NCBI GenBank assembly: GCA_964623775.1 | Contig: CAZUVH010000001.1 | Span: 40,790-104,789 of the forward strand | Origin: an uncultured Candidatus Saccharibacteria bacterium | GTDB taxonomy: Bacteria > Patescibacteriota > Minisyncoccia > Phycocordibacterales > UBA2100 | DNA: 64,000 nucleotides | Reading direction: 5' to 3' | Part shown: piece after piece, positions 10,074 to 43,764 of the stretch | Layout: each line of letters starts with the position of its first letter | Position numbering within the stretch: position 1 is the first letter of the stretch | The notes under the pieces: generated by a model | The model's database searches: none | Told to the model about the DNA's origin: nothing | What the model saw: only the letters and a program-made list of their open reading frames with translations | Program-made: the position numbers and the translations under genes

Positions 10074-11165
10074 ATGATGACCGAACACCACAATCACGTG
10101 CATGGCGCACAAAACGTCAAAGTGACGCGCAATACCGATACCTGGGAAGTTGAGCTCAAGGCGGAGATCTCCGCTGAAGCACTCGCAGGATATCGCACCG
10201 AGGCGCTCAAGGAGATTCAGAGCACCGCCAAACTCGACGGCTTCCGCCCCGGCAAGGCCCCGGCCGATCGCATCATTGCCGTCTACGGCGAAGCGGCGAT
10301 CATGCGCGAAGCTGCTGAGCACGCTGTGCAGCACGAATTGCCCGAACTCCTCGCCAAGGAGAAGCTCATGATTATCGAATCCCCCCGCGTGGAGATCGCA
10401 TCTCCAGAGGCAGGCAAGCCGCTCGCCTTTACCGCTCGCGCACCGCTCGCGCCCGAAGTCACGCTCCCCGATTACAAAAAAATCGCCTCCAAGCACAACG
10501 CCAAAAAAGAGGAAATCACTATTTCAGACAAGGAGCACCAGGATGCCCTCATCCACTTGCGACGCGAGCGCGCCCGTATCGACAAAGTAGAATCCGGTAC
10601 AGATGCGCAGAAGGCATCCGAAGAGTCTCGCGCGATGAAAGAGGATGAACTGCCGGCACTCGACGATGAATTTTCAAAATCAATCGGCTACGAGAGCGCT
10701 GCTCATTTTACCGACACCATCCGCGTGAACATGCGAGAGGAAAAGGCGCGGCAGGCGATCGAGAAGCGTCGCACCATGATCCTCGACGATCTCATCAAGG
10801 AATCCCGCATTTCGTATCCGGCGATCCTTCGCGAATACGAGCTCAACGAGATGGAGGGCCGCATGAAGGATGACCTCGAGCGCATGGGCACCACCTTTGA
10901 AGCATATTTGAATCAGACAAAGAAGACGCACGAGCAAATCCGCGCAGATTGGAAAGACGCTGCAGACAAGCGCGCCCGCATGCGCCTCATCCTCGCGGAA
11001 ATTTCCCGCGCCGAAAAGATCGAGCCGAGCCGCGAAATGATTGATCAAGAAGTCGCTCATGCCAAAGAGCACTACAAAAATGCTGACGAAGGCGTCTTGC
11101 GCACCCACATCCAGCACGCGATGAAAAACGAAGCCGTGCTCAAATTCCTCGAGGCGCAAGAATAA
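10074..11165 (+). CDS. tig: trigger factor (short form, apparently lacking the PPIase domain)
   Basis: The conserved ribosome-binding signature GFRPGKAP sits in the N-domain, and the C-terminal arm domain is present. About 360 aa from the MMTEHH start. The track ORF begins earlier, at 9972. Confidence 0.8.
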   Translation: MMTEHHNHVHGAQNVKVTRNTDTWEVELKAEISAEALAGYRTEALKEIQSTAKLDGFRPGKAPADRIIAVYGEAAIMREAAEHAVQHELPELLAKEKLMIIESPRVEIASPEAGKPLAFTARAPLAPEVTLPDYKKIASKHNAKKEEITISDKEHQDALIHLRRERARIDKVESGTDAQKASEESRAMKEDELPALDDEFSKSIGYESAAHFTDTIRVNMREEKARQAIEKRRTMILDDLIKESRISYPAILREYELNEMEGRMKDDLERMGTTFEAYLNQTKKTHEQIRADWKDAADKRARMRLILAEISRAEKIEPSREMIDQEVAHAKEHYKNADEGVLRTHIQHAMKNEAVLKFLEAQE

Positions 11166-11196
11166 ATTCAACGCCGCACGTCTCCCGTACCTATCT

Positions 11197-11240
11197 TAAC
11201 CGGTCGGTTAAGATAGGTACCGATTCCAAGTTTGCTATTT
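11197..11240 (+). terminator. long perfect inverted repeat gtacctatcttaacc-GGTC-ggttaagataggtac followed by a T-rich tract
   Basis: 15-bp perfect stem just after the tig stop. Likely the tig terminator, though it could also serve as a protein-binding palindrome. Confidence 0.55.
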
Positions 11241-11284
11241 ATTTAATATCGTTGTAGAGTATTGACCGGAAAGGATTCGGTCAC

Positions 11285-11455
11285 ATGAGTGAATCGCGTC
11301 GCACTGAGGTCATCGCACGTACGGAGACTATGAAACGAGCGCTCAAGCTCGATCAAAAGACGCTCGCGGAGCTGGGTAAATTGTCTCTCCTGGGGCAAAT
11401 GTGCTTTCTCGCACTCATGCACGAAATGCGAAACGATTCAGACACAATCCACTGA
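11285..11455 (+). CDS. small protein (56 aa) MSESRRTEVIARTETMKRALKLDQKTLAELGKL..., hypothetical
   Basis: Below the ORF-track size cutoff. AAAGGA lies 10 nt upstream. Immediately followed by a perfect terminator, gggctcccgatcgggagccc + TTTT, at 11463-11488. Confidence 0.3.
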   Translation: MSESRRTEVIARTETMKRALKLDQKTLAELGKLSLLGQMCFLALMHEMRNDSDTIH

Positions 11456-11462
11456 TGTTTAA

Positions 11463-11488
11463 GGGCTCCCGATCGGGAGCCCTTTTGA
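11463..11488 (+). terminator. intrinsic terminator gggctccc-GATC-gggagccc + TTTT
   Basis: Perfect 8-bp stem with a T-run. Confidence 0.55.
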
Positions 11489-11497
11489 TTTTGAAAA

Positions 11498-11818
11498 TCA
11501 AAGCTCTGGGGCGCGCAACCCCTTCTCTTTCATATCAAGGCGCTCGGCCATTCCAGTCAAAACCGCTTCTTCAATTGTTTTATTCATATCTTCAGGCGAA
11601 ATATCCTCCGATTGCTTGAGTTTGCGATGCAGCCGATTCGCAACCAGATTGGATATGAGCCCAATCTCTTTATCATTCAAAGACTCGCCCTCTAAGAGAA
11701 GTCCCGAGGTATCAATAAATTGCTTTACCTGGCCCTCCATAGCTTGCATCTTTGCGGGATTCGTCGCGCGTAACTCCATCGCGTAATTTGCATGCTCTCC
11801 CTCCAAATGTTCGTTCAT
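11498..11818 (-). CDS. hypothetical protein (~106 aa, MNEHLEGEHANYAMELRATNPAK...)
   Basis: C-terminal two-fifths of track ORF 11498..12199. The Arg-rich N-terminal part of that ORF overlaps the better-supported small gene 11875..12081 and is probably not coding. Confidence 0.35.
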   Translation of the reverse strand: MNEHLEGEHANYAMELRATNPAKMQAMEGQVKQFIDTSGLLLEGESLNDKEIGLISNLVANRLHRKLKQSEDISPEDMNKTIEEAVLTGMAERLDMKEKGLRAPEL

Positions 11819-11874
11819 ATATTCGAGATTTGCTTGTATTGGGATAATAGTACTCCAATCAATCCAAAAGAAAA

Positions 11875-12081
11875 CTACCCCTTGGATTGCTCCTCGGAGT
11901 AGTGGGTGGGACCCATGTCGTCGACATAGTCGCCCGACATGGAATCGCCGTAGTAGGCGGTGTCGTCGAGCCCGCGCATCTCGTCGGCGCATCCGAGATA
12001 GTAGAGCACCGAAGCGAGTAGCGCCGCCGAAGTGACGACGCCGAAGACGAAACCGCCCGAAAAGATCAGAAACTTTTTCAT
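11875..12081 (-). CDS. small secreted/lipoprotein-like protein (68 aa), cassette A of a four-gene array
   Basis: GGAGG ribosome-binding site 5 nt upstream. N-terminal signal-like MKKFLIFSGGFVFGVVTSAALLASVLYYLGC. Preceded by conserved leader element A. Confidence 0.5.
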   Translation of the reverse strand: MKKFLIFSGGFVFGVVTSAALLASVLYYLGCADEMRGLDDTAYYGDSMSGDYVDDMGPTHYSEEQSKG

Positions 12082-12094
12082 GCGCCCCTCCAGG

Positions 12095-12133
12095 CTCTAT
12101 CAACCCACGAACCATTTCATGAGCTGAATAAAG
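12095..12133 (-). promoter_or_regulatory. conserved ~38-bp upstream element, copy A (minus-strand sense CTTTATTCAGCTCATGAAATGGTTCGTGGGTTGATAGAG)
   Basis: One of four near-identical copies (A 12095-12133, B ~12999-13035, C 13481-13519, D 13743-13779). Each ends 10-22 nt upstream of a minus-strand start codon. Each is preceded (on the RNA) by a hairpin that overlaps the stop of the previous gene. Confidence 0.6.
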
Positions 12134-12153
12134 GGGCGGATAGATATCCGCCC
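12133..12153 (-). terminator. hairpin ggggcggata-ga-tatccgcccc adjoining leader copy A
   Basis: Perfect stem seen in the sequence, at the end of the upstream minus-strand unit. Confidence 0.45.
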
Positions 12154-12422
12154 TAGTAGTCGTAGCAGGAGCGGCAATGTTGTCGCTCGGCCCGCGCAAT
12201 TATCTTGCGGTTATCGCGCGGAATGCGCCGTAAAGGTTTCCCTTTGACCTGCTTAATTCGTCCGCCACCGCCATACAGGCCATAGCGCAACGGCACGTCA
12301 TACAGACCGCCGCGGTGGCGGACTTGGTGAGAGCAATAATGCGCCATAGTTCCCCCTGTGTTGGCGATTACGTAAAACGAAGTTGCGGCTGCGTGATCCT
12401 GTTTTGTAGCGGCTATCAACAC
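12153..12422 (-). CDS. questionable small basic ORF (..RYGLYGGGGRIKQVKGKPLRRIPRDNRKIIARAERQHCRSCYDY)
   Basis: Track ORF only. Low-complexity and basic. Included because it occupies the gap between cassettes A and B. It may instead be non-coding. Confidence 0.15.
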   Translation of the reverse strand: MLIAATKQDHAAATSFYVIANTGGTMAHYCSHQVRHRGGLYDVPLRYGLYGGGGRIKQVKGKPLRRIPRDNRKIIARAERQHCRSCYDY

Positions 12423-12715
12423 CGCACATGCGCGATTCCTCGCGCATTTTCCTGGGACGAACCCCGGAAGTAGACAGGATCACGCAGTTTGTCCGCTTAC
12501 ATTGCTCGTCGACTTTGAGCAACGCTGTAACCCTCGGCAAAGGTCACAGTAGTTTTGGAAGAGTGCACGGTGATTTTTTCAGCACATGTGTTGATGCGCC
12601 GCAGTGTCCTTTGATTGCACATCCTGTAAGTACAGGGCACAAAGTCTTTGCCTGCCTTAGCAAAGCTGGACACGGGGAGGAGAAGCACCCCAAACACTCC
12701 ATCACCATTCTCTGC

Positions 12716-12976
12716 CTACGAGGAACTATCGGTCCCCGGAACTGGTTGCGCATTGCCGTGCGCTATCTGTAAAAGAACGATCTCTGTTAGCTCACGAAAG
12801 ATTCCCGAGCTAAATAGAGTCCTCGAAGATTCGTCGCCGAGTTTCTTCGAAGAGTTTTTCCCTTTGCGGGAATAGCGCTTTTTGTTGAGCACCACGCGGT
12901 GGTGGTAGCGGTTGTCAGCGAGCATACGCGCCGCCTCACTGCGGGGTTTCGGAAGCTGGATGACAATCTGCTTCAT
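12716..12976 (-). CDS. small basic protein (MKQIVIQLPKPRSEAARMLADNRYHHRVVLNKKRYSRKGK...), cassette B
   Basis: ATG at 12976 sits 22 nt after leader copy B, with an AGGAAA ribosome-binding site. The track ORF 12716..13003 starts slightly upstream. The C-terminal half is of doubtful coding quality. Confidence 0.35.
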   Translation of the reverse strand: MKQIVIQLPKPRSEAARMLADNRYHHRVVLNKKRYSRKGKNSSKKLGDESSRTLFSSGIFRELTEIVLLQIAHGNAQPVPGTDSSS

Positions 12977-12998
12977 GTGTTTTCCTTTCAAACAAAAT

Positions 12999-13035
12999 CT
13001 CAATCAGCCAACGACCATTCGCGGACTGAATAAAG
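12999..13035 (-). promoter_or_regulatory. conserved upstream element copy B (CTTTATTCAGTCCGCGAATGGTCGTTGGCTGATTGAG)
   Basis: See copy A. Copies B and D share the variant ..GCGAATGGTCGT.. Confidence 0.55.
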
Positions 13036-13468
13036 CGGGCGACGATGTGTCACCCATAGGAACTTCAACGAAGCCGGCGTGCCGGAACACCTGGACCTTT
13101 TTCACGGACCCGTCTTTCTGCATTTCATCCACGCTTTCGCGCTTCGAGAATGCATACAGAATTTTGATGTTGCGCGCACGGAGTGCGGCTTCGAGCGGCG
13201 CCATGAAGAAGGGCGCGCCGCCGATCATCACGGTGTCGTACTTGTCATACGCTACCATCTGCGCCAGCGCTTCTGCCTTTGCACGCAGCTCTTTTGCGAT
13301 GGGCAATTGCTCGAATGTGATGAGCGCTTGCACCAGCTCTTTGTCGGCCGGCTCCACTACACCAGCTGCAATTTGGTCCGCGGTCGCCACGTGCTGCGTG
13401 AGGTTGAGGATTTTCATCCGCTTGCCCTTTCTTTCGATTACTGATTCGATTGCGCCTTCAGATTTCAT
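13004..13468 (-). CDS. hypothetical protein (154 aa), cassette C
   Basis: ATG at 13468 sits 12 nt after leader copy C (GGGGCGGG ribosome-binding site). Motif MKILNLTQHVATADQIAAGVVEP. Probably a soluble alpha/beta protein. No confident family. Confidence 0.5.
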   Translation of the reverse strand: MKSEGAIESVIERKGKRMKILNLTQHVATADQIAAGVVEPADKELVQALITFEQLPIAKELRAKAEALAQMVAYDKYDTVMIGGAPFFMAPLEAALRARNIKILYAFSKRESVDEMQKDGSVKKVQVFRHAGFVEVPMGDTSSPALFSPRMVVG

Positions 13469-13480
13469 TTCCCGCCCCTA

Positions 13481-13519
13481 CTCTATCAACTCACGAGCCA
13501 TTTCATGAGCTGAATAAAG
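13481..13519 (-). promoter_or_regulatory. conserved upstream element copy C (CTTTATTCAGCTCATGAAATGGCTCGTGAGTTGATAGAG)
   Basis: Differs from copy A at 2 of 39 positions. Followed on the plus strand by the hairpin agatcgag-N15-ctcgatct at 13519-13549, which overlaps the stop of cassette D. Confidence 0.6.
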
Positions 13520-13548
13520 AGATCGAGAAACGCATGCGCCCCTCGATC

Positions 13549-13731
13549 TTAATGATTGGCCGGATGTTCGACGATGTAATCGATGATCGCCCACTGATCG
13601 ACCCGGCCCCAGTCCTTGCGGTCTTCGACCGCCTTCGCGTATCCCGCATATGCACGCGGATTCCGCTTGCGGAGATCCTTGACGAACGCGAGCTCGTCCT
13701 TGGTCTCCCAATAAACCTTCTGCTCGACCAT
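13549..13731 (-). CDS. small protein (60 aa, MVEQKVYWETKDELAFVKDLRKRNPRAYAGYAKAVEDRKDWGRVDQWAIIDYIVEHPANH), cassette D
   Basis: ATG sits 10 nt after leader copy D, with a GAGG ribosome-binding site. Stop overlaps the downstream hairpin. Confidence 0.45.
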   Translation of the reverse strand: MVEQKVYWETKDELAFVKDLRKRNPRAYAGYAKAVEDRKDWGRVDQWAIIDYIVEHPANH

Positions 13732-13742
13732 GACGGACCTCC

Positions 13743-13779
13743 TCTATCAACTCACGACCATTCGCAAGCTGAATAAAGT
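13743..13779 (-). promoter_or_regulatory. conserved upstream element copy D (CTTTATTCAGCTTGCGAATGGTCGTGAGTTGATAGAG)
   Basis: Preceded at 13779-13806 by the hairpin gtgcggag-N12-ctccgcac. Confidence 0.55.
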
Positions 13780-14790
13780 GCGGAGTATTTTTTGAGCCTC
13801 CGCACACTCAAGTTTTTTTCGAGAACCACTCGGCCATGCTTTTACACCGGAGCTTTTCATGTCTACTCTTTCGGCTCATCGCCGCTGTAGATCATTCAAA
13901 CCGGCAACCTCGGTCGAGGTGATTTCCCTGAAGTTGCGCTACCGACGCAGAGCTTCTCGAGCGTCTTTTAGAGTACGGTAGACGACACCGTTAATTACGT
14001 AATAGGTCATGAAGACACCCACCACGTCGCCGACATTCACGTCGACTTCCTCGCTCCCCCAGCCGCGAGGCCTGACTGTGCCACCAAAGCAGCAAAAAAT
14101 TGCAGGAGTTGTGCGTGGTTAGTGCACTTTTATTTAGTGGGACCAACCTCCCACTGAACCGGCTACTCCAAGCCGCACCTCTCCACGACCGGTCGCGAAG
14201 AGGATTACGATGAGGCCATCGTTTTACCGTGACCCCTCCTCCCTCACCTTACGGCGAAGGCCCTCTCAGCAGTCGTTCGCTGCTGCCTGAGCACCCTCAT
14301 CTTGGGGTGGCCAGGTACATTCTTGGAATCCTTTCAGATCCCTTCGCCCGACACCAGGTGCGATTGATCACCAAATAGTTATGATTGCGCTATAAAGCGC
14401 GTAAATTATTAATTGGTGATGTCAGCTGTTGATGTCGGGGCAAGGAATTACGAGTTTGCCCTGCGCCCGCCACCCCACCATGCTTTAAATGGGGTGGGAG
14501 GCGCAGGGCACCTCGCCGTGCCCGTCATCGCTTTCGCGATGGAGGGCTTTTTTGGACCATACAGCCTATTCCGAGGCCGTATGGGTTGAATACCTTTGAT
14601 TGGCTATGGGGTGTGTCAAAGATCAGAAGTCAGCTCGTACTGACAGCGGGAGTATACACATTTGAATCGATTTGTCAAGTATTTGTGACACTTTACATTC
14701 TATACCCAAAAAAGCTCTATAAATGAGCGGTTTGTAAGGCTTTGATTAGTCAGTCCTGTATGTCATTTTTGCCTTGTAAAATAACCACAT

Positions 14791-14819
14791 TTGACAACCT
14801 TCAGTGACCGGTATATAAT
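14791..14819 (+). promoter_or_regulatory. perfect consensus sigma70-type promoter TTGACA-N17-TATAAT
   Basis: ttgaca at 14791-14796 and tataat at 14814-14819 with a 17-nt spacer, read directly from the sequence. No ORF of 60 aa or more lies downstream. The transcript would start near 14826. Confidence 0.6.
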
Positions 14820-14825
14820 GTCCAT

Positions 14826-15075
14826 AGTGCTGAAGGAGGCACTCGGGTACTTCCCGGGCCCGCAACTTCGGGTTTCATGTGCAAAAGGGAGAATCTCGTG
14901 ATTCTCACACGTGGTGACGGCGGCGGCGCATAACCGACTGTCGTGAAAAGAGATGGAAAGTGATGTGTGAAGTTTGAGTCCGGCATCATTTCGGGTTCGG
15001 GATTGTCACATGTCCTTTCCCCAACAGGGCGGCTCTGCGAGAAGCAGAGCCGCCCACAACTTTATCTTTTTTGCT
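14826..15075 (+). ncRNA. candidate small RNA (or tiny-peptide transcript), unassigned
   Basis: ~240-nt unit bounded by the consensus promoter and the intrinsic terminator gggcggctctgc-gaga-gcagagccgccc + T-run at 15028-15075. Contains AAGGAGG with no usable start after it. Only 11-18-codon ORFs (MILTRGDGGGA, MCKRENLVILTRGDGGGA) are present. Several internal GC hairpins. Does not match RNase P, tmRNA, SRP or 5S rRNA signatures by eye. Confidence 0.3.
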
Positions 15076-15856
15076 CGAACTGACCCATTTCCCACAGTAA
15101 AGAGAACAACGTGCTAACACTTTGCGTTATTTCCTTACTTTCTATAGCAACGCCGAACACTTTCCCCTGTAATGCCATAATGGCGACTGTGTTGTTGTAA
15201 ATATAAATATCCGAATGTATCGGCATTCGATCATAGGGGATGAAACGACGCTCTGTAAATTCCACAATGTCGTCGCCGGAAAACGGACCATCCTTGCGCG
15301 TGTAAATAGCTTTGAGGTAAATCCCTTTCGCAGAACGTTTTTGAGCGTGGTCATATCGCTCCTTCTCGGAGTACACATTTGCGAGTGCGTCATGACAATA
15401 AATAAATTTTAATTCAGTGCCACTCGGCAGTGCGAGCAAGCTGTCTCGCATTCGTGCGACACCTTCTTTCCCATCAAAGAATCGTACGATAGGACGCTCG
15501 CCAGCTCCCTCAAACTTTTTTGTGAGTTCGGGAAGGATGGTGGCGAGGTCATTTTCCCTCGATTCAAATTCTCTTTTTTTCGCGTCGAAAATTTTCTTAA
15601 GCAATTCTGGTGATTCGGGGGCAAACATCGTCTTCTTCCCTTCTTCGTAGGTGCTCATGAGGCCCATTTTCATGAGCGACTCGAGCTGCACATAGGTAGT
15701 AGGGCGTTTGATCTTTGCATGCTTCGCGAGCTGATCAGCAGTAGCTTGGCCGATCTCGAGAGCTGCGAGATACACACGCGCTTCTTTTTCCGAGAGACCA
15801 AGATCTTGGAGTTCTTTTAACATCTTCGTATTGTATTGCACAAATGCCTGTATCAA
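15062..15856 (-). CDS. TrmB-family transcriptional regulator (paralog 1)
   Basis: N-terminal wHTH LGLSEKEARVYLAALEIGQATADQLAKHAKIKRPTTYVQLESLMKMGL plus a TrmB-type C-domain. The true start may be the internal Met near 15823. Confidence 0.75.
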   Translation of the reverse strand: MIQAFVQYNTKMLKELQDLGLSEKEARVYLAALEIGQATADQLAKHAKIKRPTTYVQLESLMKMGLMSTYEEGKKTMFAPESPELLKKIFDAKKREFESRENDLATILPELTKKFEGAGERPIVRFFDGKEGVARMRDSLLALPSGTELKFIYCHDALANVYSEKERYDHAQKRSAKGIYLKAIYTRKDGPFSGDDIVEFTERRFIPYDRMPIHSDIYIYNNTVAIMALQGKVFGVAIESKEITQSVSTLFSLLWEMGQFEQKR

Positions 15857-43051: not shown

Positions 43052-43118
43052 ATCCTCCTGTCAAAGAACTTTTGTATTGTGGAGTACATGTATGAAAAAT
43101 GTTGTCGTGACAGATAGT

Positions 43119-43138
43119 ATGTACTAAATAAAGTACAT
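43119..43138. promoter_or_regulatory. palindromic 20-mer ATGTACTAAATAAAGTACAT (copy 1)
   Basis: Identical to the copy at 43745-43764. Sits ~68 nt upstream of the apt start. Confidence 0.5.
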
Positions 43139-43669: not shown

Positions 43670-43744
43670 GATGGTTCTCCTTTTTTCAAAGAACTACTTG
43701 TAGGATACCGGGAGGGGGCGAGAAAGTCGTCGATGGTTGTAAAA

Positions 43745-43764
43745 ATGTACTAAATAAAGTACAT
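43745..43764. promoter_or_regulatory. palindromic 20-mer ATGTACTAAATAAAGTACAT (copy 2)
   Basis: 8 nt upstream of the TrmB paralog 3 start, in the divergent promoter region shared with the zinc-ribbon gene pair. Confidence 0.5.

Follow-up and report, generated by a model that had tools for sequence, protein, structure and literature searches.

A Structured Intercistronic Element as a Candidate RNA Module in a Small-Gene Array of Candidate Phyla Radiation Bacteria

Introduction

On the minus strand of a 64,000-nt stretch of DNA (contig CAZUVH010000001.1, hereafter the window), an array of small, mutually unrelated genes occupies the region 11,875-13,810, and a nearly identical element of about 40 nt recurs at the borders of these genes. 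The question raised by this locus is what a conserved element does between coding sequences that are not conserved themselves. Our results suggest, tentatively and at a rough probability of 45%, that the element is an intercistronic RNA module involved in 3'-end formation, processing or insulation, which also provides portable homology for the shuffling of the genes it separates. The window represents a housekeeping region in the chromosome of a groundwater-type bacterium belonging to the candidate phyla radiation (CPR; Parcubacteria-like). Related contig loci compared with the window are designated by L-numbers (L183, L188, L329, and others).

Element Copies in the Window

A covariance model built from 16 distinct copies of the element was applied to the 64-kb window using cmsearch. 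Five copies of 40-42 nt were detected, all on the minus strand and within 1.7 kb, and no further copy was found by the model in the rest of the window. With filters switched off, a search of the region 11000-15100 returned the five copies at 51-61 bits, the next best score being 11 bits. The pattern TTTATTCAG-N17-23-TGATWGAG matched the minus strand four times (12095-12132, 12999-13034, 13481-13518, and 13742-13777) and was not matched in any of 100 shuffles serving as the chance control. In the order in which the array is read, the copies are:

13740-13779, minus strand, copy D, 36-nt core variant (cmsearch 60.7 bits and pattern match; predicted fold -16.9 kcal/mol sense vs. -3.7 kcal/mol antisense)
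13479-13520, minus strand, copy C, 38-nt core variant (cmsearch 60.4 bits; predicted fold -17.8 kcal/mol sense vs. -6.6 kcal/mol antisense)
12997-13036, minus strand, copy B (cmsearch 54.4 bits)
12780-12820, minus strand, copy E, degenerate, situated before no gene and in the 3' part of the basic open reading frame (ORF) (cmsearch 50.8 bits)
12093-12134, minus strand, copy A (cmsearch 61 bits)

A preliminary description of this DNA had listed four copies, each followed by a ribosome-binding site and an ATG after 10-22 nt. All four are present, and the distances between element and ATG were measured as 13, 22, 12, and 10 nt, with the ribosome-binding sites GGAG, AAGG, GGGG, and GAGG, respectively; the fifth, degenerate copy E (CTCTATTTAGCTCGGGAATCTTTCGTGAGCTAACAGAG) had been overlooked. 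Copy E has orthologues in L188 (6181-6220) and L329 (1856-1896). As stated in that description, copies A and C are identical except at 2 of 39 positions, and copies B and D have a shorter variant in common, which agrees with the two pairs reported by a repeat finder (39 nt at 95% identity and 37 nt at 81% identity). The repeat families measure 37-39 nt only, so that the element is not part of a longer duplication reaching into coding sequence, a case that had been named as speaking against a separate element.

Structure and Covariation of the Element

On the sense strand, the whole element is predicted to fold as a bulged hairpin of approximately 15 bp (hairpin 2), consisting of a 9-bp inner helix (CAGCUCGCG/CGUGGGUUG), the loop GAAUGGU, and a 6-bp outer helix (CUUUAU/AUAGAG) with one bulged U. 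A conserved hairpin maintained by G-U pairs and compensatory changes had been proposed beforehand, and this part of the proposal was borne out by the covariance model and covariation test that it had recommended, with compensatory changes in two alignments; the stem had been put at 6 bp, which fell short of the inner and outer helices described here. In the model-fitted alignment of 27 distinct copies, 96% of the cells were paired and double changes occurred in six of the nine inner pairs, values that none of 500 shuffles reached. The outer helix, which lies outside the covariance model, pairs equally well and has double changes in three of its six pairs. Alignment of 44 copies by MAFFT, followed by RNAalifold, yielded the same structure with 13 pairs, nine of them featuring compensatory changes, and the pair table of this alignment contained about 108 G·U cells as compared to about 4 A·C cells. 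The 36- and 38-nt variants differ by an extra A on the 5' side and an extra U on the 3' side of the loop, that is, by one added base pair; among the copies of the window and the first set, copy C (A...C) is the exception to this paired A...U indel. Furthermore, the sequences of loop and flanks are kept across genera beyond what pairing requires.

Fold energies, start-codon spacing, and the gap to the preceding hairpin were scored over 49 copies from the window and the related loci. The mean predicted fold energy was -17.5 kcal/mol for the sense and -10.1 kcal/mol for the antisense strand, the sense strand being the more stable in 46 of the 49 copies. Such an asymmetry is not expected of a palindrome bound by a protein in duplex DNA, indicating that the structure belongs to the sense strand. 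Judged from these sequences, which combine compensatory pairing with restriction to the sense strand in the manner of a structured cis-acting RNA, the structure would act as sense-strand RNA or, less likely, as single-stranded DNA.

No Rfam family matched the element region at the gathering score, only four tRNAs in the window reaching it. At relaxed thresholds, the region 11000-15200 gave no Rfam hit with E<0.01, and no weak hit overlapped the element or a terminator-like hairpin. A reading of the AUG in the loop as the start of a conserved micro-ORF was considered and rejected, as the 36- and 38-nt variants disagree in frame and stop codon.

The Junction Module

Every copy in the window is directly preceded by a GC-rich hairpin of variable sequence (hairpin 1):

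13778-13805, minus strand, hairpin 1 at copy D (gtgcggag...ctccgcac), from sequence and predicted fold
13520-13549, minus strand, hairpin 1 at copy C, overlapping the stop codon of the 60-aa gene, terminator-like, 13 pairs, tail CTTTATTCAG
13036-13056, minus strand, hairpin 1 at copy B, weaker, inside the MJ1673-like ORF, terminator-like, 8 pairs
12821-12853, minus strand, hairpin 1 at copy E (cttcgaaga...tcttcgagg), inside the ArfA-like ORF, predicted fold
12134-12153, minus strand, hairpin 1 at copy A (gggcggata...tatccgccc), terminator-like

The strong hairpins quoted for the boundaries between units in the preliminary description are thus present, and three of its four junctions were called terminator-like, with the U-rich tail CTTTATTCAG, in which the tract UUUAUU holds five U in six positions. 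A consensus scan detected 14 terminator-like sites in the region as compared to 4.4 ± 2.2 expected. With a GC-rich stem followed by a U-rich tract within 0-2 nt, hairpin 1 has the appearance of an intrinsic terminator, and it was scored terminator-like in the window, L186, and L207. The gap between hairpin 1 and the element is 0 nt in 41 of 49 copies. In the predicted intergenic folds, two abutting hairpins were obtained, with z values of about -3 to -6 in seven of eight junctions, L198 (-0.5) being the exception. In the L329 junction orthologous to that of copy C, the pairing of hairpin 1 is kept via changes from G·U to A-U and from G·U to G-C.

The TTTATT of the element doubles as the U-tract of hairpin 1, which reads CUUUAUU in the RNA. 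Since hairpin 2 thereby includes the U-tract of hairpin 1, the unit at each junction is a composite module of about 70-80 nt, comprising hairpin 1, hairpin 2, and the ribosome-binding site with the start codon, and not a simple motif of the 5' untranslated region.

Genes of the Array

The following genes are encoded in the array or close it:

13549-13731, minus strand, 60-aa ORFan cassette gene (ORF)
13004-13468, minus strand, MJ1673/Csx20-like gene, 154 aa (family matches)
12716-12976, minus strand, ArfA-like basic ORF, 86 aa as read, conserved core to about residue 41 (profile match)
12153-12347, minus strand, 64-aa basic ORF of doubtful coding status, ending at the hairpin before copy A (ORF with ribosome-binding site)
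11875-12081, minus strand, gene for a 68-aa acidic protein with an N-terminal hydrophobic segment (ORF)
11498-11818, minus strand, conserved 106-aa gene closing the array (synteny with L188 5811-6143)

Four small genes without detectable similarity (68, about 87, 154, and 60 aa) had been reported. The corresponding ORFs of 68, 86, 154, and 60 aa indeed gave no significant mutual match; the count of four was too low, a fifth small ORF of 64 aa lying at 12153-12347. Two of the genes regarded as being of unknown function were placed by profile and family matches, one as an ArfA-like rescue factor and the other as an MJ1673/Csx20-like protein. No usable match for the 60-, 64-, 68-, and 106-aa proteins was obtained from Pfam, NCBIfam, or PHROGs.

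The ArfA-like family (F1) was recognized by means of a profile of five CPR homologues, whose six best matches in the PDB were all E. coli ArfA (E=4e-4 to 2e-3), the alignment spanning the LxDPxFxQRVxxxKK…YxRKGK core. The Pfam model for ArfA did not match the single 86-aa sequence. In total, 44 homologues were collected by profile search, mostly unannotated in their source databases; among distant members, PF23876 is carried, one carries PF03889, and one was named ArfA by JGI. The position of the stop codon is a particular feature of this gene. In the window, L188 (6171-6392), L198 (about 8485), and L200 (about 9269), the ORF passes hairpin 1 and the element before any stop is met, and in L329 (1709-1864) it ends at a TAG inside the U-tract of the element. 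In L183 (1981-2140), where the ArfA-like gene is the last of the array, the in-ORF terminator is kept and no element follows, indicating that hairpin 1 goes with the gene before it and the element with the cassette after it. In E. coli, the arfA mRNA is shortened by an RNase III cut in an imperfect hairpin and by premature termination (PMC3989581), and in B. subtilis, brfA has an intrinsic terminator inside the ORF (PMC6881298). As far as can be read from its sequence, the ArfA-like ORF has this arfA/brfA design, which would yield a non-stop mRNA.

The 154-aa protein (family F2) was assigned to Pfam PF27247 (MJ1673) in precomputed annotation and has 338 homologues, nearly all from CPR-type sources. 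Among the homologues listed, MJ1673-like proteins are about 53-82% identical to the window protein. Homologues start at the residue matching an internal ATG (13417), from which the protein would have 137 aa. The ORF has no stop of its own: it runs through hairpin 1 and ends at a TGA inside copy B. The match to NCBIfam Csx20 reached 31 bits (E=2.2e-7), the family cutoff being 70 bits. Csx20 has a CARF-like fold and has been confirmed by experiment as a cA4 ring nuclease (bioRxiv 10.1101/2024.09.24.614671), and the MJ1673/Csx20-like protein is possibly a CARF-type ring nuclease.

Several observations were made on this family outside the window. The MJ1673-like gene is widely conserved in Parcubacteria beside the TrmB gene, and cas genes are lacking in its vicinity. 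P0116, one of the homologues, forms a fusion with the C-terminal domain of the RNA polymerase alpha subunit, and a cassette of L186 (3051-3374) has weak similarity to the same domain. In two pig-gut contigs of about 175 kb (L202 and L203), an MJ1673-like homologue occurs among co-oriented unannotated genes with neither element nor TrmB, indicating that the family also exists outside the array.

The 60-aa protein has a single relative among 5.8 billion proteins, which is likewise flanked by elements (L329). A homologue of the 68-aa protein is encoded in the L206 array (family F7), and the 106-aa gene follows directly after an E-type element in L188.

Between copy E and the 64-aa ORF, about 430 nt (12348-12780, minus strand) contain only short, unconserved ORFs. 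A perfect 14-bp inverted repeat lies in this segment (12389-12402 and 12474-12487, 71 nt apart); the segment may represent a decayed cassette or a small RNA.

Distribution and Cassette Variation

The same module recurs in Parcubacteria-like (CPR) metagenomic contigs, at more than 15 loci and each time as a single co-oriented cluster adjoining a TrmB gene. The strict pattern, applied to metagenome contigs, returned 14 stretches, all of them CPR-like and with one cluster each, and even contigs of 98, 126, 162, and 370 kb contain one cluster only. Further loci were reached via homologues of the 154-aa protein; these arrays have one to six copies, all co-oriented with the genes. In a looser scan of genome contigs, the genuine matches among those listed were L114 (a Kaiserbacteria metagenome-assembled genome) and L059 (a metagenome-assembled genome labelled Saccharibacteria), most of the others being chance matches. 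Contigs bearing the labels Kaiserbacteria, Saccharibacteria, Pacebacteria, and others have the element in conserved form. Its occurrence as one co-oriented cluster per contig indicates that the element is locus-specific and is neither a genome-wide repeat nor a general promoter. Neither the element nor its architecture nor its association with MJ1673-like and ArfA-like genes was found in Rfam or in the literature searched.

No match to the strict pattern was obtained in viral contigs. Looser viral matches were discarded as chance, the best of them (L261) lying inside a large phage ORF resembling the terminase large subunit. A phage or plasmid origin of the array was likewise rejected: its DNA had no BLAST match in phage and plasmid collections, and the hits in PHROGs were all weak and to families of unknown function.

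The cassette content was compared by clustering the ORFs of 15 related arrays, which revealed two recurrent gene families (F1 and F2) and many singletons, with families and order differing between loci. The clearest case is L329, in which the order is element, 61-aa gene, element, ArfA-like gene, and E-type element. The window has the 60-aa gene, copy C, the MJ1673-like gene, copy B, and the ArfA-like gene where L329 has the 61-aa gene, one element, and the ArfA-like gene. L329 1377-1688 aligns with 13792-13481 and L329 1651-1911 with 13035-12765, the two alignments overlapping only within the element. The window thus has one extra cassette, composed of the MJ1673-like gene and its junction, with breakpoints in the repeat. 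Compared to L188, extra units are present in the window on both sides of the shared segment of ArfA-like gene, E-type element, and 106-aa gene. Small variable ORFs flanked by the motif, with indel breakpoints inside it, are therefore what the window/L329 pair, L188, and the 15 loci have in common with PeSL-type (promoter early stem-loop) arrangements, and the co-oriented, unrelated ORFs of varying content are also found in integrons.

These results bear on several statements of the preliminary description. Its notion of cassette-like modularity gained support from the 15 loci with differing content and the one-cassette difference breaking inside the element, and coding sequence between the conserved elements was found to be unconserved across the same loci. 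The search of related genomes that it had suggested yielded more loci with differing gene content. Occurrence at hundreds of sites in the manner of REP (repetitive extragenic palindromic) elements was not observed, there being one cluster in 64 kb and one per long contig. Its other suggestion, a co-regulated accessory regulon, is not supported, the element being confined to one cluster per contig behind one canonical promoter.

In other arrays, too, elements are followed by hundreds of nt without an ORF or by nothing on that strand (L183 846-1285 and L186 2855-2896). Such units may be decayed cassettes or may encode RNA instead of protein.

Genomic Context and Promoters

In the window, genes of the type II secretion system/type IV pilus, NusA, pyrophosphatase, and trigger factor (tig) are followed by the array and then by the genes for TrmB, ClpP, and RNase Y, the last lying 3.6 kb from the array. 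Three features adjoin the array on the side of TrmB:

15062-15856, minus strand, gene for a TrmB-family regulator (Pfam PF01978, E=2e-14)
14651-14678, minus strand, sigma-70 promoter TTGACA-16-TATACT facing the array (promoter scan; hexamers conserved in L188)
14791-14819, plus strand, divergent sigma-70 promoter, 12/12, conserved in L188

TrmB adjoins the array in every locus whose neighbourhood was covered by a gene map or homology search. The position between TrmB and tig recurs in L186, L188, L197-199, L206, and L207, and in L200, L204, and L208, where the other neighbours differ, TrmB is still adjacent. This constant adjacency is what our gene maps and homology searches yielded on the suggestion to look for a cognate regulator, for example among the TrmB paralogs.

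Between TrmB and the array, 1.25 kb are devoid of long ORFs, and the strand of the array has no promoter-like site ahead of the array other than that at 14651-14678. Similarly, L207 (3629-3657) and L186 (6076-6105) each have a single promoter-like site on this strand ahead of the first element, and in L198 and L200 a canonical promoter was read by eye directly before the first gene. Inside the arrays, no promoter-like site was found except for one weak site (9/12) towards the distal end of the array in L207. At a threshold of at least 9/12 matches, no sigma-70 -35/-10 pair was detected in or after the element in the window, and the same held for L186 and L207.

No integrase was found within 8-10 kb in the window, L197-L200, L206, or L207, based on a Pfam scan of the longer ORFs and on gene maps. 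The earlier statement that no integrase or attC core is evident therefore stands for the window and most loci. A Xer-type tyrosine recombinase is encoded 2-4 kb from the array, next to rpsO, in L208 (8146-10341) and L204 (12191-13111), the gene in L208 being interrupted by an intein with a LAGLIDADG domain.

The leader region and the wider window contain further conserved features. A transcript starting from 14651-14678 would open with a small conserved hairpin (GUCAG-UACGAG-CUGAC), and the plus-strand promoter at 14791-14819 points antisense to the end of trmB. In the leader, conservation in L188 and, in part, in L206 covers the stretch 14324-14516, which includes a 21-nt inverted repeat at 14457-14510 with 90% complementarity and a loop of 12 nt. 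Just upstream of the first junction, at 13815-14010 on the minus strand, a conserved micro-ORF of 23 codons (MTYYVINGVVYRTLKDAREALRR, ATG at about 14010) precedes a highly conserved non-coding segment of about 130 nt, the stretch having about 75-80% identity to L207 4511-4784. This stretch had no match in Rfam and may represent a small structured RNA or leader. At a distance from the array, the palindrome ATGTACTTTATTTAGTACAT occurs at 43114-43133 and 43740-43759 (minus strand), about 60-80 nt upstream of small-gene starts; one copy precedes two small cysteine-rich proteins and the other a separate gene. It has only the TTTATTTAG core in common with the array element and may be a separate operator site.

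Proposed Role of the Module

We propose that the array would be transcribed from the single canonical promoter upstream. Hairpin 1 may then act as a leaky intrinsic terminator or as a 3'-end protector of the upstream gene, transcripts either ending there or reading through. In the read-through RNA, hairpin 2 would form a recognition or processing site, for which RNase III and RNase Y are candidates, and might in addition serve as a 5' structural insulator, leaving the downstream cistron as a stable, separate unit. For the ArfA-like gene, the module would supply the mRNA truncation that regulation of the ArfA/BrfA type needs. At the DNA level, the modules form direct repeats of about 40 bp, between which homologous recombination could delete, insert, or swap cassettes, providing a route for their gain and loss.

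Several points weigh against this proposal. The conservation of loop and flanks across genera exceeds the usual need of RNase III and implies a sequence-specific partner. If hairpin 1 terminated transcription efficiently, the downstream genes would need a promoter, and the element would be the only conserved candidate for it. As the first gene of an array, the MJ1673-like gene follows a canonical promoter, and in an internal position it follows the element, a pattern that also fits a promoter role. Copy E lacks a start codon nearby, and it shares with the copies at L183 844 and L186 2855 the lack of a close downstream ORF. Finally, the covariation counts from the 27 model-fitted copies lean towards the model; the MAFFT and RNAalifold alignment of 44 copies, being independent of the model, lessens this bias, and the kinship among copies remains.

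Alternative Explanations

The strongest rival, which we consider unlikely, is a composite terminator-promoter analogous to PeSL, in which hairpin 1 would end transcription and the element would start each unit near its GATA/GAG boundary by means of an alternative sigma factor or polymerase. Terminator-like hairpins at nearly every junction invite re-initiation, the element ends where the ribosome-binding site begins, the MJ1673-like gene possesses a promoter or an element according to its position, and PeSL provide a precedent (PMC4122927, PMC2839356). However, no sigma-70 -35/-10 sequence is present in the element, although the genome uses TTGACA/TATAAT promoters; the would-be -7 position is not conserved, and the distance between the two conserved flanks changes by 2 nt via the paired indel. 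The excess of G·U over A·C cells (about 108 vs. about 4), together with the compensatory changes, would also be unexpected for a promoter in duplex DNA. The 3' part of the element (GTGAnnnnATAGA) may resemble promoters of phage single-subunit polymerases such as SP6; the gene maps of the loci contain no gene for a phage-type polymerase. Alternative sigma factors agree poorly with the element as well. For sigma-54 (TGG-N-TTGA), the sequence reads GA in place of the -12 GC, and the spacing shifts by 1 nt between variants; sigma-28, sigma-B, sigma-H, and extracytoplasmic function (ECF) factors were discarded by eye because of mismatches in spacing or motif. Contig ends in Logan were rejected as a proxy for transcript ends, since assembly breaks at repeats.

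Distinctly less probable is an operator, as hairpin RNA or as DNA, for a sequence-specific regulator that would control translation, stability, or transcription of all cassettes together; it could be either an RNA-binding protein or the adjacent TrmB-family factor, the latter binding the long-spaced inverted repeat CTYTATYMA...TKRATARAG. Such a role would account for the conservation of the loop GAAUGGU and its flanks across genera beyond pairing, and for TrmB as the invariant neighbour even where other genes differ; in several copies, for example window copy D and L329, the 3' strand of the outer helix moreover overlaps the ribosome-binding site (AGAGGA). Base-specific recognition of duplex DNA is contradicted by stem sequences that vary while pairing is kept, as in the three L185 copies. 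The canonical promoter, at which a repressor site would be looked for, has no element, and no RNA-binding protein is consistently encoded in the arrays.

A further idea, which we regard as a long shot, is that the folded element is the recombination site of an integron-independent cassette-capture system in CPR, operated by a distant Xer-type or other recombinase or by natural transformation followed by element-to-element recombination. In a less radical variant, which is likewise conjectural, a dedicated endonuclease would cut the array transcript at each element in the manner of CRISPR processing. A single-strand DNA recombination site of the attC-like, HUH, or Xer kind, with the folded sense strand as the recombinase substrate, is highly improbable. 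It would agree with co-oriented, unrelated ORFs separated by conserved folded junctions, with a structure that is kept more than the stem sequence and on one strand only, and with the indel breakpoints inside the element, and the 9-bp arms around a conserved centre of 6-8 nt match the core geometry of tyrosine recombinases. Homologous recombination, though, would account equally well for breakpoints in a direct repeat of 40 bp, and the Xer-like genes of L204 and L208, at 2-4 kb from the array, are neighbours of rpsO in conserved housekeeping surroundings; no integrase is encoded within 8-10 kb in the window, L197-L200, L206, and L207. GTTRRRY/RYYYAAC cores were not seen in the sequence, the best partial matches (5/7 and 6/7) occurring on the opposite strand only. 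Whereas attC sites measure 57-141 nt, lie 3' of their ORF, and carry these cores and extrahelical bases, the element is located 5' of its ORF and has 41 nt, which is shorter than any known attC.

Antitermination of the nut/put type, with CUUUAUUCAG as boxA and the hairpin as boxB allowing the polymerase to read through the next hairpin, is scarcely to be expected. A CUUUA-containing motif and a hairpin do recur after every terminator-like hairpin, NusA is encoded nearby, and the stretch resembles boxA (CUCUUUAACAA); nevertheless, the boxA-like stretch is predicted, with support from covariation, to be paired in the outer helix and would then be inaccessible to NusB/NusE. Moreover, the first terminator-like hairpin precedes the first copy, and no N- or Q-like protein was identified.

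The least probable explanation, a functionless passenger conserved only because its copies are recent, draws on the high similarity of copies within a genome and is opposed by the conservation of the element across contigs of different labels, the adjacent MJ1673-like proteins being only about 53-82% identical to the window protein among the homologues listed, by compensatory changes that keep the pairing of divergent copies, and by the fixed position relative to hairpin 1 and the start codons. A CRISPR repeat or REP element was rejected on account of spacing and distribution: the start-to-start spacings of the copies (259, 484, 216, and 686 bp) are not those of a CRISPR array with its short non-coding spacers of 25-70 bp, and all intervals in the window but that of 216 bp hold an ORF with a ribosome-binding site.

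Significance

CPR/Patescibacteria account for a large uncultured share of bacterial diversity, and their gene regulation is little known. In this context, the 41-nt element is a structured sequence with covariation support and no Rfam family that can be searched for across genomes, and its locus is one in which orphan small genes are gained and lost within otherwise minimal, stable CPR genomes. The occurrence of a candidate ArfA-like rescue factor together with a Csx20-like protein outside a CRISPR context raises questions about cyclic-nucleotide signalling and the quality control of translation in ultra-small symbionts. Should the hairpin prove to be the target of a nuclease or protein, it could be used as a natural cistron-insulating part.

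Comparison with Known Systems

Similar to integrons, the array consists of co-oriented, mostly promoterless small ORFs with folded, strand-specific junctions and varying content. In contrast to integrons, it has no intI, attI, or R'/R'' sites, and its element, 41 nt long and 5' of the ORF, is conserved in both sequence and structure. REP elements and bacterial interspersed mosaic elements (BIMEs) are comparable as intergenic hairpins within operons, which may protect upstream mRNA and set differential expression; they differ in being dispersed over hundreds of sites in both orientations together with RAYT (REP-associated tyrosine transposase), as compared to one locus and one orientation here.

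Between the early genes of phage T7, irregular hairpins serve as RNase III sites at which the polycistronic transcript is cut into stable single-gene mRNAs. The array resembles this arrangement in having irregular hairpins between cistrons and departs from it by the terminator-like hairpin before each site and by the conservation of loop and flanks across genera. The likeness to arfA/brfA lies in an ORF that meets a stem-loop or terminator before its stop codon, the combination of RNase III cleavage and termination matching the logic of hairpins 1 and 2. Unlike arfA/brfA, the module is reused at unrelated genes, and the conserved hairpin belongs to the downstream cassette.

The PeSL motifs of T4-like phages are composite motifs with a terminator stem-loop that border small orphan ORFs, and their shuffling was proposed to proceed via homologous recombination between motifs, since indels between relatives break within the motif (PMC2839356, PMC4122927). 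The array shares with them a motif repeated at the borders of small ORFs and indel breakpoints inside it, so that recombination at junction modules would parallel the hyperplastic regions of T4, but in a cellular chromosome. It is unlike PeSL in residing in a CPR chromosome and not in a phage, in having hairpin 2 instead of a sigma-70 early promoter, and in occurring as one array per contig. Composite junction motifs, ArfA-type hairpins, and intercistronic processing hairpins are thus known kinds of thing; what has no counterpart in Rfam or in the literature searched is this particular element with its architecture, its CPR-specific distribution at a single locus, and its core of MJ1673-like and ArfA-like genes.

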